A DNA stretch of 10,468 nt from Candidatus Iainarchaeum sp. (GTDB lineage: Archaea; Iainarchaeota; Iainarchaeia; Iainarchaeales; GCA-2688035): positions 1 through 10,468 of the forward strand of contig JAQTNI010000041.1 of assembly GCA_028713935.1 (NCBI GenBank), in the 5' to 3' direction. Positions 1-10,468 of this stretch are shown piece by piece. The notes beneath the pieces were generated by a model that saw only the letters and a list, made by a program, of their open reading frames with translations, ran no database searches and was not told the origin of the DNA. Numbering within the stretch: the first letter of the stretch is position 1; every line of letters begins with the position of its first letter. Position numbers and translations under genes: made by a program.

Positions 1-44
1 GCTTCCTTCAAGAAATCACCTAATCTTATAACGCATTATTCCTA

Positions 45-52
45 TTTAAATA
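45..52 (+). promoter_or_regulatory. TATA-box-like element (tttaaata) just upstream of repeat copy B1
   Basis: tttaaata matches the archaeal TATA consensus and lies 9 nt before the B1 element at 61. No downstream gene is assigned, so its function is unproven. Confidence 0.25.
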
Positions 53-60
53 TTTGCTTA

Positions 61-113
61 GGCCTTTCTTTGAAAAAGAAAGCCCTGGGAAAGAAAGACT
101 TGCTTCGCAAGTC
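61..113 (+). repeat. B-family two-hairpin repeat, copy B1
   Basis: ggcc-ctttcttt-gaa-aaagaaag-ccctgggaaagaaa followed by hairpin gacttgc-ttc-gcaagtc. It aligns with copies at 1371-1426 and 1491-1546. A degenerate, rearranged copy lies at about 186-262. Confidence 0.7.
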
Positions 114-265
114 TATCCTTTAGCGAATCCAAACAGGCAACTATTTGTTTTGCTCAATGGTTTTTTACGTTTATCGGGATTCGAAAGGCTTTTTCTTGAA
201 AAGAAATTAAAAGCTCACCTTGCAAGAAGGGAAAAAGAAGCCTTTTCTTTGTTTTGGCAAGAGAA

Positions 266-378
266 ATGTTTATCAAAAGTTCAGGTTTCTTTTCTTTGGA
301 AGCCATTTAAAATATAATTTGGTTTCTTTTCTTTTGGCAACCTACATTTTCTTTTCTTTGTAAGAAAAGAAAAGGGCA
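266..378 (+). repeat. A-family composite repeat, copy A1, ending 1 nt before tRNA-Val
   Basis: Modules shared with 1230-1331 and 10281-10364: gtttatcaaaagttcagg, two ggtttcttttctttgg(g)caac-type units (284-304, 321-341), and a terminal hairpin at 347-373 (ttttcttttctt / tgt / aagaaaagaaaa, 12 bp) followed by gggcag. A TATA-like tttaaaatata sits inside at 306-316. Confidence 0.7.
306..316 (+). promoter_or_regulatory. TATA-box-like element, candidate tRNA-Val promoter
   Basis: tttaaaatata lies 63-73 nt upstream of tRNA +1 (379). This implies a ~40-nt leader containing the 347-373 hairpin. Confidence 0.35.
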
Positions 379-450
379 GGGCCCGTGGTTTAGTGGTATA
401 ACGTCGCATTTACACTGCGAAGGCTGCCGGTTCGATTCCGGCCGGGCCCA
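379..450 (+). tRNA. tRNA-Val (anticodon UAC), no intron, no encoded CCA
   Basis: Hand-folded cloverleaf. Acceptor stem GGGCCCG/CGGGCCC (379-385 / 443-449). Anticodon stem tcgca/tgcga with loop tt-TAC-ac. T arm gccgg-ttcgatt-ccggc. Discriminator A450. Confidence 0.9.
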
Positions 451-455
451 CAAAT

Positions 456-468
456 TCTTTTAAAATAA
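456..468 (+). promoter_or_regulatory. TATA-box-like element upstream of the HAD gene
   Basis: cttttaaaataaa is centred ~28 nt before ATG 491, consistent with a leaderless or near-leaderless archaeal mRNA. Confidence 0.35.
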
Positions 469-490
469 AAAATCCCGAAAGGCAATTTCA

Positions 491-1150
491 ATGCAAAAAA
501 TAAAGGCAATTATTTTTGATTTGGACGGAACCCTCATTGACACTATTCCTTTTCACGCGGAATCTTTCATAACCTTGTTCGGGCTTTTTGGCCACAAAGT
601 GAAAAAGCAAAAAATAAAGCATTACCTGCGCCTGAACACAGAAGAAATATACAAAAAACTCGGGGCAAAAAAAACTTTGAAACTGGACATGAAAAAATTT
701 TTGGAATTAAGAAGGCGGATTTATTATGCCGCAATCAAAGGCAAAAAAACAGTTTTCAATGATGTTTTTCCCGCATTGCAAAAACTCAAAAAATACAGGC
801 TGGGAATTGCAACAAACTCAAGCAGAAAAACACTTCTGAAATCAACTCCCAAAGGCCTGTTCAAGAAGTTTGACTCGGCAATTTCTTTTTCAGAAGTCAA
901 AAGTGCAAAGCCAAGCCCGGAAATGCTCTTGAAAATTGCAAAAAAACTGAAAGCAAAAACAAAAGAATGCCTTGTCATAGGCGATTCAGTAATGGACGTA
1001 AAAGCAGCAAAAAAAGCCGGAATGAAAATAATGTCAATTTACAGGAAAACAGGCGCCTCAACACTCAAAGAGCTTCAAAGGGAAAAACCCGATTTCATTG
1101 CAAAAAGCCTGTCAGAAATTACAGGCACAATCAAAAAAATTGAAAACTAA
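491..1150 (+). CDS. HAD-superfamily (subfamily IA-like) phosphatase / phosphomutase
   Basis: 219-aa ORF. Motif I is IFDLDGTLIDT (DxDGT). Motif II is IATNS. A conserved Lys lies in SAKPSPE. Motif IV is GDSVMDV. A cap-domain-sized insert follows motif I. Confidence 0.85.
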   Translation: MQKIKAIIFDLDGTLIDTIPFHAESFITLFGLFGHKVKKQKIKHYLRLNTEEIYKKLGAKKTLKLDMKKFLELRRRIYYAAIKGKKTVFNDVFPALQKLKKYRLGIATNSSRKTLLKSTPKGLFKKFDSAISFSEVKSAKPSPEMLLKIAKKLKAKTKECLVIGDSVMDVKAAKKAGMKIMSIYRKTGASTLKELQREKPDFIAKSLSEITGTIKKIEN

Positions 1151-1229
1151 TCCCCGCAAGTGCAATTGTTTTAAAACCTTCCCAAACCAATTAATCAATA
1201 CAGCCCAAAAAAGAAGATTAACCAATTTT

Positions 1230-1331
1230 GGTTTCTTTTCTTTGGGCAACAGAGTTTGTTTACCAAAAGTTTAGGCTTCTTTCTTTTGGGCAACTTACAC
1301 TTTTCTTTCTTGGAAAGAAAGAAAAGGGCAG
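1230..1331 (+). repeat. A-family composite repeat, copy A2, ending 1-2 nt before tRNA-Gly(GCC)
   Basis: ggtttcttttctttgggcaac (1230-1250), agtttgtttaccaaaagtttagg (1253-1275), ggcttctttcttttgggcaac (1274-1294), and hairpin 1300-1326 (cttttctttctt / gga / aagaaagaaaag, 12 bp), then gggcag. Confidence 0.75.
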
Positions 1332-1332
1332 T

Positions 1333-1488
1333 GCGGGTGTGGTCTAGTGGCTATGATTCGACCTTGCCAAGGCCTTTTCTTAAAAAGAAAAGCCCTGGGA
1401 AAAGAAGTTTTTGCTAACGCAAAAACAATTTAACCAAAATCGAAATTGCAACGAGGTCGTGGCCCGGGTTCAATTCCCGGCACCCGCA
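1333..1488 (+). tRNA. tRNA-Gly (anticodon GCC) with an 84-nt intron at canonical position 37/38 (intron about 1370-1453)
   Basis: Acceptor stem GCGGGTG/CACCCGC (1333-1339 / 1481-1487). Anticodon stem cgacc (1359-1363) pairs with ggtcg (1455-1459). Anticodon GCC is at 1366-1368. T arm is ccggg-ttcaatt-cccgg. Splice motif: a 4-bp helix 1364-1367/1448-1451 is flanked by 3-nt bulges caa (1368-1370) and cga (1452-1454). Confidence 0.85.
1371..1426 (+). repeat. B-family two-hairpin repeat, copy B2, inside the tRNA-Gly intron
   Basis: ggcc-cttttctt-aaa-aagaaaag-ccctgggaaaagaa, then hairpin gtttttgc-taac-gcaaaaac (1407-1426). It makes up the 5' two-thirds of the intron. Confidence 0.75.
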
Positions 1489-1490
1489 AA

Positions 1491-1546
1491 GCCTTTTCTT
1501 AGAAAGAAAAGCCTTGGGAAAAGAACAATTTGCTCCGCAAAGAATT
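1491..1546 (+). repeat. B-family two-hairpin repeat, copy B3, starting 3 nt after the tRNA-Gly(GCC) 3' end
   Basis: gcc-cttttctt-aga-aagaaaag-ccttgggaaaagaa, then hairpin tttgc-tcc-gcaaa (1529-1541). Confidence 0.7.
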
Positions 1547-1790
1547 TTTTGTTACTTTCGCTGTAGCCTACTTCTAAGGCGGTGCGGCCTGTCAATTCCA
1601 AAATAAATTGAATTTTGCCTTTGGCTAATTGGAAGAAGGGATTTTCTCAAAGTGGGCGAAATTGCACGTGTTCTCTTCCCTGTTGTGCGCGTTTTTCTTC
1701 CTATTGACAATTTAACCATTTTTTCACTGCCATTAAAAAGGCGTTTCCAAATTTTAAGAATTTTTTGTTCGTGCGGCAAGCAAAAAAAAA

Positions 1791-3177: not shown

Positions 3178-3861
3178 TTATAGCTTTAATTTTTTTTTCA
3201 GTTTTTTCCAGATTTCAGAATGAATGTCTTCCTGTGGCCTTACAAAAAAAGAACCGTGCTTTTTCACTGCACAATCAATTGCAATCCACCTGTTCTTTTT
3301 TGCAAGCGAAGCATAAACTTTGCGCGTGCGCTCCAGATAAGCCGCGTCTGCCTCATGCAAATCTTTTTCTGAACCCTTCCTGTAATCCTCTTTCCTGTCC
3401 TGGCCAGCCATTAATTTTTGTGCCACTTCAGTCGGCATATTCAAAAAAACAACAGCATCAGCCCTTGGCATTCTCGATTCAAGGGATTCAACCCAGAAAA
3501 GGAATTTTTTTTGTTCGGAAGCCAGGGAAAACTTTGCTGTTTGATGCGCAATATTTGACTGGACATACCTGTTCATTACAAGAATTTTTCCAGCAGAAAC
3601 CTTTTCTTCAATTTCTTTTTTTATCTGGTACCTGTCAAGGGAATAAAGCAAAGCGCAAAATTCCGGAGCCAGGCTTTTGATTGGGCCGAATTCCCCCGAA
3701 AGGTGTTTTCCAGCCAAAGAGCCAAAAAAAGAGTCGTATCTTGGAAAAGAAAAAAGCTCGGCTTCAATTCCCAAAAACTGGAGCTTTTCAAAAAACAATT
3801 TTGTTTGAGTAGCCTTGCCGCTTGCATCAGTGCCTTCAAAAACAATAATAGCGCCTTTCAT
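3178..3861 (-). CDS. tmk: Thymidylate kinase (dTMP kinase)
   Basis: 227-aa ORF. N-terminal P-loop is IIVFEGTDASGKATQ. A DRY-type motif is present (SLDRYQ). Length and layout are typical of Tmk. Confidence 0.85.
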   Translation of the reverse strand: MKGAIIVFEGTDASGKATQTKLFFEKLQFLGIEAELFSFPRYDSFFGSLAGKHLSGEFGPIKSLAPEFCALLYSLDRYQIKKEIEEKVSAGKILVMNRYVQSNIAHQTAKFSLASEQKKFLFWVESLESRMPRADAVVFLNMPTEVAQKLMAGQDRKEDYRKGSEKDLHEADAAYLERTRKVYASLAKKNRWIAIDCAVKKHGSFFVRPQEDIHSEIWKKLKKKLKL

Positions 3862-3950
3862 GCAGAAACCTGAAAAATAAAGGAAAAAACTGGTTTAAAA
3901 AATAATGCCAAAGAAAATTATTTCAGGTTTTGGCTAAAAACCAAAAAAAA

Positions 3951-4021
3951 GCGTCCGTTGTCTAGCGGTAGGATCGCACCCTTCCAAGGTGCTGACCCGG
4001 GTTCGAATCCCGGCGGACGCA
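3951..4021 (+). tRNA. tRNA-Gly (anticodon UCC), no intron
   Basis: Acceptor stem GCGTCCG/CGGACGC (3951-3957 / 4014-4020). Anticodon stem gcacc/ggtgc with loop ct-TCC-aa. T arm ccggg-ttcgaat-cccgg. Discriminator A4021. Confidence 0.9.
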
Positions 4022-9417: not shown

Positions 9418-10011
9418 TTGAAAGCGTTTGATGTTGCACCTGGAAGGCTTGTTGAAGCAACTGCACTGGAACTGGAAAAGCTTGGCACAAAGGCGCCTGA
9501 ATGGGCTTTGTTTGTCAAGACTGGCTCGCACAGGGAAAGAGCGCCTCATAAGAGGGATTGGTGGCAGTTCAGGCTTGCAAGCATTCTTTACAGGATTTTA
9601 CGGGAAGGCCCGATTGGAACCCAGAGATTGAGAACTTATTATGGTGGAAGGAAAAACAGGGGAGTTGCGCCTCCAGTATTCAGGAGATCCGGAGGAAAAA
9701 TTATCCGGGTTTGCCTGCAGGAATTGGAAAAGCTTGGCTTTGTGCAAAAAAACAAGGCAGGCGGAAGAATTATTTCCGCAAAAGGCAATGCGTTTTTGGA
9801 TAAAATGGCAAAAGAAGCGGCAAGAATTGAAGCAGAAGAAACAGCCCATGCTGTTGAGAGAAAAGCAGAAAAGGAAAGGGAAAGGGCGAAAAAAGACGCT
9901 GAAGAAAGAAAAGTAAAGGAAGAGCTCAGAAAAATCGGGGGTGCGCCTGACAAGAAGCATGAAAAAAAGGCTGTGAAAAAGAAAAAGTCCGAAGGCGAAA
10001 CAAATGAATGA
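9418..10011 (+). CDS. rps19e: 30S ribosomal protein S19e with a Lys/Glu-rich C-terminal extension
   Basis: PEWALFVKTGSHRERAP..RDWWQFRLASILYRILREGPIGTQRLRTYYGGRKNRGVAPPVFRRSGGKIIRVCLQELEKLGFV is the S19e signature. The listed start is TTG. About 65 aa of tail follow the conserved domain. Confidence 0.9.
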   Translation: MKAFDVAPGRLVEATALELEKLGTKAPEWALFVKTGSHRERAPHKRDWWQFRLASILYRILREGPIGTQRLRTYYGGRKNRGVAPPVFRRSGGKIIRVCLQELEKLGFVQKNKAGGRIISAKGNAFLDKMAKEAARIEAEETAHAVERKAEKERERAKKDAEERKVKEELRKIGGAPDKKHEKKAVKKKKSEGETNE

Positions 10012-10276
10012 GCGGCCTGAAGAAAGCAATTCCGCAAAACAGGAAAAAATTGAAGCAGAGCTTGAAGAAGGCCTGCGAATGGCTCTTACCCAAGAAGCCA
10101 AAATGCGGCTTGGCAATGTAAAGCTTGTAAATCAGGAACTTTATTACAAGGCTGTCCAGGCAATTCTGTATCTTGTAAAAAGCGGAAGGATAAGCGGAAA
10201 AATTGATGAGGCGCAAATAAAGCAATTGTTGGAAAAATTATCTGTAAAAAGGGAAATTAGCATTAGACGGAGATGA
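10004..10276 (+). CDS. PDCD5/TFAR19-like double-stranded DNA-binding protein
   Basis: 90-aa ORF. LTQEAKMRLGNVKLVNQELYYKAVQAILYLVKSGRISGKIDEAQIKQLLEKL fits the archaeal PDCD5-homolog pattern. It overlaps the S19e stop by 8 nt, which suggests an operon. Confidence 0.75.
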   Translation: MNERPEESNSAKQEKIEAELEEGLRMALTQEAKMRLGNVKLVNQELYYKAVQAILYLVKSGRISGKIDEAQIKQLLEKLSVKREISIRRR

Positions 10277-10280
10277 AAAA

Positions 10281-10364
10281 CAAAGTTTGTTTACCAAAGA
10301 TAAAGGTTCTTTTTCTTTGGGCAACTTGCACTTTCTTTTTCTTTGAAAGAAAAAGAAAGTGCAG
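10281..10364 (+). repeat. A-family repeat, copy A3, not next to a tRNA, with a perfect 17-bp hairpin
   Basis: agtttgtttaccaaagataaagg, ggttctttttctttgggcaac (10305-10325), and hairpin 10328-10362 (gcactttctttttcttt / g / aaagaaaaagaaagtgc), then ag. Confidence 0.75.
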
Positions 10365-10392
10365 AAGGGAAATTAGCATTAGGAGAAGATGA
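10365..10392 (+). repeat. Second copy of a 28-bp direct repeat (first copy 10249-10276, the last 8 codons plus stop of the PDCD5-like gene)
   Basis: aagggaaattagcattagacggagatga versus aagggaaattagcattaggagaagatga. That is 25/28 identical, and both read REISIRRR-stop in frame. Confidence 0.8.
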
Positions 10393-10401
10393 GTTGGTGA
10401 T

Positions 10402-10468
10402 ATGTCGAGCAATAAGGATTCTGAGTTTAAGGAATTTTTGATTAGTTCCAGGAAAAAAATTGGGCCCG
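10402..10468 (+). CDS. 5' end of an unidentified gene (runs off the window)
   Basis: ATG 10402 is preceded by ttGGTGAt (SD-like). The frame stays open to the window end (MSSNKDSEFKEFLISSRKKIGP...). Confidence 0.35.
   Translation, partial: MSSNKDSEFKEFLISSRKKIGP

Follow-up and report, generated by a model that had tools for sequence, protein, structure and literature searches.

A hairpin repeat with a co-varying third tract, flush with tRNA genes and introns in Iainarchaeia, is probably a small mobile element of DPANN archaea

Intrastrand triplex repeats are, in general terms, sequences in which an inverted pair of homopurine and homopyrimidine tracts is accompanied by a third tract in mirror orientation, and in bacteria they are represented by BoxC, PIT and TM_ECO (Holder et al. 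2015, PMC4666352). On a separate line of work, archaeal tRNA genes have been seen to acquire introns: an "intron transposition" between tRNA genes of Thermoproteales is cited in PMC4090602, gains have been reported for the Asgard archaea (bioRxiv 10.64898/2026.10.13.758758), and the route by which such introns arrive has been called open (bioRxiv 10.64898/2026.10.13.758758; PMC3293823). The repeat described here, which we call the A element, bears on both subjects. It stands in a stretch of 10,468 nucleotides from Candidatus Iainarchaeum sp. (contig JAQTNI010000041.1, assembly GCA_028713935.1), hereafter the window, which is the entire contig C41 of the source genome G000 (1.23 Mb in 72 contigs, 39.7% G+C, 94% complete, with a coding share of 90%; Iainarchaeia, DPANN). 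Two of its copies in the window lie directly before tRNA-Val(UAC) and tRNA-Gly(GCC), and a third one is not adjacent to any tRNA. A sequence-only reading of the window had offered several roles for these hairpins, from a signal for tRNA leader processing to the end of a mobile element; the analysis reported here suggests that A is probably mobile, a small non-autonomous element that occurs in DPANN archaea. Nothing relevant came up when the literature was searched for triplex or mirror repeats next to tRNA genes in archaea or DPANN, and A is apparently an undescribed triplex-type mobile repeat.

The full A unit is about 76 nt long, and G000 holds about 60 copies or fragments of it, as detected in its contigs at E<1e-3 with a hidden Markov model (HMM) built from 26 copies. 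From 5' to 3' the unit comprises YTGTTTAYC, arm 0 (CCAAAAG-like), a spacer, arm 1, a linker, arm 2, a 3-nt loop, arm 3 and GGCAG; arms 1 and 2 consist of pyrimidines and arm 3 of purines. The 11-nt linker is GGCAACTTACA-like, and its length is kept exactly in 53 of 56 copies from other genomes. The conserved core of about 50-55 nt runs from arm 1 through the linker and the hairpin (arms 2 and 3) to the GGCAG tail; core-only copies are common both in G000 and elsewhere, while the local subfamily is extended on its 5' side by a module (TGTTTAYCAAAAG), and the arm 0 within this module is able to pair with the terminal part of arm 1. Related copies were found at 57 loci of other DPANN genomes, labelled Iainarchaeum, Diapherotrites, Micrarchaeota, Pacearchaeota, Aenigmatarchaeota and Nanoarchaeia. 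In the window, the three copies are located where they had been placed before (266-378, 1230-1331 and 10281-10364), and they can be delimited, together with the two tRNA genes, as follows:

321-378, + strand: A core copy before tRNA-Val(UAC) (HMM positions 20-77, E=3e-12), with arm 1 at 323-335, linker at 336-346, arm 2 at 347-358, loop at 359-361, arm 3 at 362-373 and the tail GGGCA at 374-378; arms 2 and 3 form a perfect stem of 12 bp
379-451, + strand: tRNA-Val(UAC) (ARAGORN; Rfam RF00005, 73.9 bits)
1256-1331, + strand: full A copy before tRNA-Gly(GCC) (HMM positions 2-77, E=5e-21), with arm 0 at 1263-1269, arm 1 at 1277-1287, linker at 1288-1299, arm 2 at 1300-1311, loop at 1312-1314, arm 3 at 1315-1326 and the tail GGCAG at 1327-1331; arms 2 and 3 form a perfect stem of 12 bp
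1333-1489, + strand: tRNA-Gly(GCC) with an 84-nt intron (Rfam 1333-1488, 45.5 bits; ARAGORN with introns)
10287-10364, + strand: full A copy, not tRNA-adjacent, a lineage-specific insertion (HMM positions 2-77, E=4e-17), with arm 0 at 10294-10300, arm 1 at 10307-10318, a perfect stem of 18 bp (10327-10344 / 10346-10363) and the tail end at 10364

Compared with shuffled sequence these copies fold more stably, with z-scores of -2.7 (Val), -2.6 (Gly) and -5.8 (10287-10364). The stems had been described as perfect over 12, 12 and 17 bp, which holds apart from the third, longer by one pair. They end 5 nt (Val) and 6 nt (Gly) before tRNA base 1, the very spacing that had been noticed upstream of the ribonuclease P (RNase P) cleavage site. 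The repeats as a whole had been said to stop 1-2 nt short of the tRNA; this is true of the Gly copy, where a single T (1332) separates GGCAG from the tRNA start at 1333, whereas the final G of the GGCAG of the Val copy is tRNA base 1 itself (379), leaving a gap of 0 or -1. In an Rfam scan of the window the tRNAs were the sole matches: the A element matched no family, and snoRNA and miRNA scores stayed far below threshold.

The property that sets A apart from a plain hairpin is hidden in the module "ggtttcttttctttgggcaac", where the sequence-only reading missed a third tract, which is the mirror image of the 5' stem arm and co-varies with it. In other words, arm 1 consists of the letters of arm 2 read backwards, which is neither a direct nor an inverted repeat; the mirror is complete in the Val copy (12/12 positions) and nearly so in the Gly copy (11/12). 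Across 37 G000 copies there are 19 distinct arm-2 sequences, each of them perfectly paired with its arm 3, so that the compensatory changes proposed from the window extend to the whole genome, and arm 1 is 94.5% identical to the mirror of its own arm 2 as against 78.5% for the mirrors of other copies, an own-mirror identity that none of 5000 permutations equalled. The residual part corresponds to a regular C-to-G change at the outermost position. A sample of 56 copies from other genomes, picked solely by their linker, contains 31 arm patterns of 7-16 nt and gives the same mirror identity of 94.5% (0/2000 permutations). In a tally of 105 distinct stems from G000 and other genomes, 1311 Watson-Crick pairs stand against one conserved A.G mismatch at the stem base and about 10 other non-pairs, so the uncompensated mismatches that might have accumulated in a larger sample are few; indeed, they are too few (2 T.G, 1 C.A) for a ratio of U.G to C.A that would tell selection at the RNA level from selection at the DNA level.

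Arm 1 runs parallel to arm 3 with T facing A and C facing G, which is the geometry of a pyrimidine-motif triple helix, while the complementary strand of A has the purine-motif arrangement. The combination of inverted pair and mirror third tract that characterizes intrastrand triplex repeats is thus present in 37 own and 56 foreign copies, and a single A strand would be able to fold as a hairpin with a Hoogsteen third strand, i.e., as an intramolecular triple helix. Since templated copying produces direct or inverted repeats, never mirror repeats, the co-variation of the three arms points to selection on the three-stranded fold; the mirror relation is also beyond the reach of gene conversion within the hairpin. 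Arm 0 adds a possible complication, as it could pair with the end of arm 1 at the expense of the triplex. The co-variation of these two segments is suggestive (Fisher p=0.05, with no correction for relatedness), and a two-state switch operated by arm 0 was set aside, given the weak association and the decay of several arm 0 tracts.

Regarding mobility, three G000 copies (10287-10364 in the window, C30:3414-3491 and C52:6044-6117) have empty orthologous sites in congeners, the comparison being made with two sister species of the same genus, G001 and G002. Both lack the copy at 10287-10364 and have a single version of a 28-bp segment that flanks it on both sides in G000:

10249-10276, + strand: upstream member of the 28-bp target duplication (direct-repeat family D18, with 89% identity to 10365-10392), which is the functional 3' end of the open reading frame 10004-10276, stop codon included
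10277-10286, + strand: about 10 nt of junction that separate the duplication from the element's 5' end in the empty-site alignment
10365-10392, + strand: downstream copy of the duplication, beginning directly after GGCAG and retaining the ancestral stop codon, a 10-nt spacer and the ATG of the next gene at 10403

The duplication at C30 (35-42 bp) covers the last codons of a gene and its stop codon, and that at C52 (36-49 bp) covers a ribosome-binding site, the start codon and the first 12 codons. At the three sites the downstream duplicate starts at the first base past GGCAG, and the duplicated pairs leave both neighbouring genes intact, which in a genome with so high a coding share is probably the reason why such insertions survive. 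Two more G000 copies have duplications of 17 and 18 bp, and in other genomes 12-55 bp are duplicated around at least 10 further copies, beginning 1-2 nt past GGCAG; at one of them (L100) the duplicate consists of the last 17 nt of a tRNA, and fragments of a tRNA 3' half occur in duplicate on the flanks of another (L065). The 5' junction of the element is irregular, and the three 3' junctions that were checked share 0-1 nt with the target. As for the duplicated gene ends themselves, the three differences between 10249-10276 and 10365-10392 are all synonymous (AGA CGG AGA vs AGG AGA AGA), though only one copy should code; the C30 duplicates (about 3379-3413 vs 3499-3540) differ by four synonymous codons, one conservative R/K change and the stop codon (TAA vs TAG). 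Relative to G002, changes are found in both copies.

Some G000 copies are composite. Those at C55:4136-4205 and C58:2576-2645 have a second small hairpin element (…GCAAAAC…GTTTTGC…), about 50 nt long, nested in the loop of their main hairpin, and still have their flanking duplications of 17-18 bp. At C62:757-796, C51:1408-1445 and C52:6673-6712, the hairpin-GGCAG module is fused to a different conserved 5' part (…ATTTGATTGTTTGACATTGTG), one such copy standing before tRNA-Val(GAC), which suggests modular elements with one common 3' end.

The second property to be explained is the placement of the copies. Twelve of the 45 G000 copies with a complete 3' end are flush with tRNA ends or intron borders: four sense copies precede a tRNA (Val-UAC, Gly-GCC, Pro-UGG or Val-GAC), with GGCAG at base -1 to +1 of its 5' end, three antisense copies have their GGCAG end flush against tRNA 3' ends, four antisense copies begin introns at position 37/38 and one sense copy ends an intron. 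The genome-wide census against tRNA genes that had been proposed from the window therefore turned out clearly non-random, as 7/45 copies abut a tRNA end within 1 nt when 0.04 would be expected under random intergenic placement (binomial P about 3e-14). Of 65 matches in other genomes, 30 are placed likewise, within the few nt to which ARAGORN borders are accurate: sense copies abut tRNA 5' ends in 5 cases and close introns in 4, and antisense copies abut 3' ends in 9 and open introns in 12. The hairpin end faces the exon in 30/30 foreign and 12/13 own cases, with the third strand pointing away. A passive origin of this flushness, through deletion of spacers, was rejected, as it fails to predict that only the hairpin end faces exons. 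The three window copies, being outside the tRNA body or far from tRNAs, are not archaeal tRNA introns of the bulge-helix-bulge (BHB) type, although other members of the family do form introns starting at 37/38. Duplicated exon-1 ends at the 3' ends of introns, which one would expect had introns arisen with a long target duplication of the same kind, were not supported (own pairs 4.8, mismatched pairs 4.5, permutation p=0.14). Many other exon borders are flush with a B element or its reverse, the B family having the architecture of A as seen from the other strand, with a mirror purine tract in addition to the hairpin; one of its members opens the tRNA-Gly(GCC) intron (an intron at about 1370-1453), and another trails that tRNA. 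The copies outside tRNA genes are intergenic, and at least 10 of them begin 3-10 nt past a stop codon in sense orientation; relative to neighbouring genes the orientation is moderately skewed (25 sense toward the next gene vs 11), and the upstream neighbours are divergent starts in 16/39 cases.

The surroundings of the two leader copies, of the Gly trailer and of the third tRNA gene considered in the window contain these further features:

267-300, + strand: partial A copy with 5' module, arm 0 and arm-1 tract (HMM positions 3-36, E=6e-5); the orthologous site of G001 has a single uninterrupted full A copy
301-320, + strand: insert of about 20 nt, present in G000 and missing from the same site in G001 and G002, with a TATA-like box at 306-317 (TTTAAAATATAA)
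1166-1178, + strand: TATA-like box, TTGTTTTAAAACC, probable promoter of the tRNA-Gly(GCC) unit
1223-1250, + strand: fragment of an older or duplicated A copy, an arm-1 tract plus GGGCAAC (HMM positions 13-40, E=0.03; direct-repeat family D1)
1490-1545, + strand: B-family element flush with the 3' end of tRNA-Gly(GCC) (direct-repeat family D4), in all three congeners
3951-4021: tRNA-Gly(UCC) (ARAGORN)

The leader copies of tRNA-Val(UAC) and tRNA-Gly(GCC) occupy the same sites in G000, G001 and G002, and their arms differ between the species in concert, in all three tracts: the Gly copy of G001, for instance, has three extra T/A positions, which appear in arms 1, 2 and 3 alike, and one T.G mismatch was seen in G001. 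The box at 1166-1178 and its flank CAATTG are kept in the three species despite a different upstream gene, and if transcription starts there, the whole Gly copy would lie inside a leader of about 135 nt. Before tRNA-Val, the insert 301-320 sits between two arm-1 copies (a 16-nt duplication of arm 1), and its box resembles those found 28-55 nt upstream of other G000 tRNA genes, which is consistent with a promoter role. The insert may have re-created the tRNA-Val promoter nearer to the gene, and a leader started at this box would include the hairpin and probably lack the third strand. The footprint of this insert, an insertion plus a long duplication, is like that of the A element itself. As for tRNA-Gly(UCC), which had been correctly singled out for lacking an A copy, its leader has a small hairpin of its own (GGTTTTGGCTAAAACC, 3923-3946) between a TATA-like box (about 3893-3906) and the gene, and hairpin leaders therefore exist apart from the A element. 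The RNase P RNA gene of G000 is located at C23:18151-18419 (80 bits, E=8e-23), so ordinary leader removal is available. A BHB formed between leader and trailer of tRNA-Gly(GCC) was considered and discarded: GAAAAGGGC pairs with GCCTTTTC, but with a 3x3 internal loop, and tRNA-Val has no counterpart.

Other copies have been less stable. The copy downstream of the C28:12704 tRNA has no third arm left in G001 and has degenerated in G002; the 3' end of tRNA-Ala(TGC) is flush with an antisense A in G000, with a B-type element in G001 and with a third kind of hairpin in G002; and the intron of tRNA-Gly(CCC) is an antisense A in G000 and a B-type element in both G001 and G002. Judging from these alignments, tRNA borders are hot spots of nucleotide-precise turnover, at which the individual copies are dispensable.

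Some further observations concern the tRNA genes as such. The intron of tRNA-Gly(GCC) has 84 nt in G000 and 90 nt in G001 and does not exist in G002; tRNA-Val(UAC) has a 16-nt intron in G001 only; and the HAD-family gene that separates these two tRNAs in the window (491-1150) is absent in G002, where they are 145 nt apart. The intron-containing gene at C28:12704-12909, called tRNA-Val(tac) by ARAGORN, is probably a tRNA-Leu(UAA), to judge by its anticodon loop and long variable arm. Neither ARAGORN nor Rfam found isoacceptors for Ile, Phe, Tyr, Lys and Gln-UUG in G000, and they were probably missed owing to unusual introns.

If A moves, which enzyme moves it? The footprint, with its 3' junction precise, its 5' junction irregular and its duplications long and variable, resembles a 3'-end-first insertion of the type of short interspersed nuclear elements (SINEs), or template switching. 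Duplications beginning 1-2 nt after GGCAG and the many copies that start at HMM positions 17-27 or 40 are both features of a retroposon, although the variable 5' extent may just mean that the short form is the core element. However, the search for a reverse transcriptase was negative: the RVT_1 domain was not found in G000, where at 94% completeness its absence is not proven, or in five other genomes of the family, and it occurs in 11/81 genomes of the order without tracking the repeat, one of these (G019) having RVT_1 and no match to window positions 1-1700. The TnpB domain was not found in G000 either, within the same completeness, and a guide model similar to TnpB/omega RNA was rejected on that ground. 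The single IS200-type (Y1) transposase gene, C7:22310-22777, was likewise rejected as the mobilising enzyme, since the GC-rich hairpins that flank it are unrelated to the pyrimidine/purine arms of A; they read CCGCC TTCG GGCGG upstream and CGGCGGGC TTTA GCCCGCCG downstream, and the gene lies about 430 nt from tRNA-Arg(CCU). The longer autonomous relatives for which a search had been suggested are not among the HMM matches of this 94%-complete genome.

The data show that A is dispersed, that new copies arise, that each of them creates a long target duplication (12-55 bp) starting right after GGCAG, and that elements replace one another at a given border between sister species. On the reading of A as a mobile element, the two leader copies of the window would be transcribed within long pre-tRNA leaders and cut off by RNase P, as tolerated passengers and not as required processing signals, and the three-way co-variation would be retained because the fold serves the copying of the element, or its persistence as a single-stranded intermediate. 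There are several points that weigh against this proposal. It lacks a mobilising enzyme, given the results for RVT_1, TnpB and the Y1 flanks in a 94%-complete genome, and a partnerless selfish element that persists in several DPANN lineages would be odd, so that a host function could exist instead. Copies that remain intact at the same sites in three species, with concerted arm changes, could reflect selection on resident copies and not just on those that are still mobile. Moreover, selection acting on insertions alone leaves the nucleotide-precise borders unexplained, and the foreign copy L100 joins inside a tRNA T-loop, where the tRNA was rescued by the duplication.

The other explanations differ in what they make of these difficulties. 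The one first suggested for the window, a dedicated leader signal that aids RNase P processing or protects or insulates these tRNAs, agrees with the distance of 5-6 nt that separates the stem from base 1 of tRNA-Val(UAC) and tRNA-Gly(GCC) and with the same layout before tRNA-Val(GAC), tRNA-Pro(TGG) and five tRNAs in other genomes. It has nevertheless become very improbable: an A copy stands upstream of only 4 of about 40 G000 tRNA genes (at two or three others the place is taken by a reversed B-type or other hairpin), tRNA-Gly(UCC) being one of those without A; no copy precedes tRNA-Val(UAC) or tRNA-Gly(GCC) in G013, G014 and G025, comparison genomes from three other genera of the family or order; and the identical element is found reversed at 3' ends, in introns and far from tRNAs. 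With the leader copies confined to the genus, and with A replaced by other elements at the same borders in sister species, they are not an essential RNase P signal. A broader host function is conceivable in the form of a boundary module, a structured, exonuclease-resistant transcript end: before tRNAs, the RNase P cut would leave an upstream RNA ending in a triple-helix-capable fold, as in MALAT1/mascRNA, while after tRNAs and stop codons the element would serve as a terminator, stabiliser or insulator, like repetitive extragenic palindromic (REP) elements. This would give a reason for the hairpin end being flush with RNase P, 3'-end and splice sites, for the sense copies 3-10 nt after stop codons and their orientation toward the next gene (25 vs 11), for the copies kept intact at the same sites in three species and for the conserved TATA-like box upstream of the Gly copy. 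It is, in our opinion, unlikely even so, because the orientation relative to transcription is mixed (divergent starts at 16/39 upstream neighbours), only a minority of tRNAs and genes has a copy, and the copies are lineage-specific, decaying and replaced by other elements. Besides, the tRNA-linked copies are mostly antisense, so that the RNA would need a purine-type triplex, which is weak in RNA, and the TATA-like insert stands right before the second arm-1 tract, so that the predicted tRNA-Val leader RNA probably has no third strand.

Two alternatives keep the movement and change its agent. In one of them, A would spread through templated insertion by host replication and repair: the triplex or hairpin stalls a fork, the nascent strand copies the element elsewhere and returns behind its departure point, leaving a long and variable duplication. 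The range of duplication lengths (12 to 55 bp), the irregular junction on the 5' side and the lack of an element-specific enzyme (RVT_1 and TnpB not found in G000, Y1 unrelated) speak for it; the unrelated insert 301-320 is also flanked by a duplication, and bacterial triplex repeats have been reported to block polymerase in vitro and to mark variable regions (PMC4666352). We consider it improbable, in view of the nucleotide-precise GGCAG junction with 0-1 nt shared with the target at the three checked sites, of the fixed-orientation preference for exact tRNA and intron borders, which it does not predict, and of the matching of the three arms, which template switching leaves unexplained. The other alternative is a spread initiated at the 3' end and joining the element to processed RNA ends, namely the 5' and 3' ends of tRNAs and the exon ends made by the splicing endonuclease. 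The hint of an RNA step comes from the junctions, which coincide with RNA processing sites; template switching, or ligation of an excised leader, trailer or intron RNA to a tRNA, followed by copying into DNA, are candidate routes, and the triple helix would stabilise the RNA intermediate. The chances of such a route are quite low, but, if true, it would be a prokaryotic counterpart of SINE-type retroposition and a general way in which archaeal tRNAs come by their introns, leaders and trailers. The explanation that we favour, with moderate confidence, remains that of a small non-autonomous mobile element.

Whatever moves it, one sequence family supplies tRNA introns, leaders and trailers, and it bears on how archaeal tRNA introns and leaders arise. 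In the sister genomes, some copies appear as additions with insertion footprints and others as swaps at one border, which makes intron gain testable. The co-variation, with about 50 arm patterns, is natural evidence of unusual clarity that an intramolecular triple helix is under selection, and the arm variants are a defined sequence set for biophysical tests. On a more practical level, the family explains several features of DPANN genomes, namely long "introns", missed tRNAs, contig breaks and duplicated gene ends.

How does A compare, then, with the systems already described? The suggestion of the sequence-only reading that the hairpin is the end of an element similar to miniature inverted-repeat transposable elements (MITEs) and targeted to tRNA-proximal DNA is the one that the data support, through the empty sites and the association with tRNA borders; nonetheless, A departs from the classical MITE. 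The two ends, YTGTTTAY... and ...GGCAG, share at most CTG and so form no terminal inverted repeats, the duplications (28, 35-42, 36-49, 17 and 18 bp in G000, 12-55 bp elsewhere) are neither short nor fixed, and no autonomous relative encoding a transposase was found in G000 at its 94% completeness. With MITEs and with REP/BIME repeats it shares being small, structured, non-coding, multi-copy and mostly intergenic, often past stop codons, with a presence that varies between close relatives, and it differs from them in its mirror third tract. Unlike the REP/BIME-RAYT system and the IS200/IS605-derived PATE elements, A does not flank a Y1 gene, and its insertions do make duplications.

At the 3' ends of MALAT1 and MEN-beta, RNase P cuts at a tRNA-like structure beside a triple helix, and the ENE elements of transposon RNAs clamp an A-rich tail in a U-rich internal loop. 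The likeness to MALAT1 and MEN-beta lies in the triple-helix-capable fold directly upstream of an RNase P site; by contrast with MALAT1 and the ENEs, A would be a pyrimidine-pyrimidine-purine fold-back, it is mostly antisense to the tRNA, and it is known from sequence alone. The target-primed insertion of SINEs and of long interspersed nuclear elements (LINEs) also combines a precise 3' junction with a variable 5' extent and long, variable target duplications, whereas A has no A-rich tail, and a reverse transcriptase was not found in G000 and five genomes of the family. Elements of the SINE or LINE type are not known from prokaryotes. With archaeal BHB introns the overlap is direct, as a single A sequence family makes 37/38 introns in different tRNAs, with gains and swaps between relatives, and the difference is that A supplies leaders and trailers too and, with target duplications, has entered the ends of protein genes.

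Finally, among described repeats BoxC, PIT and TM_ECO come closest to A, and the likeness is one of design: both are short, dispersed and intergenic, have three tracts per strand (a hairpin and a mirror) and have no assigned transposase or function. The bacterial repeats belong to proteobacteria and measure 37 nt, as opposed to 50-76 nt in DPANN archaea. The full text of PMC4666352 contains neither "tRNA" nor "duplication", so it describes no association with tRNAs or introns, no target duplications and no mobility. Lastly, TM_ECO copies are nearly identical to each other, while those of A display dozens of co-varying arm patterns.

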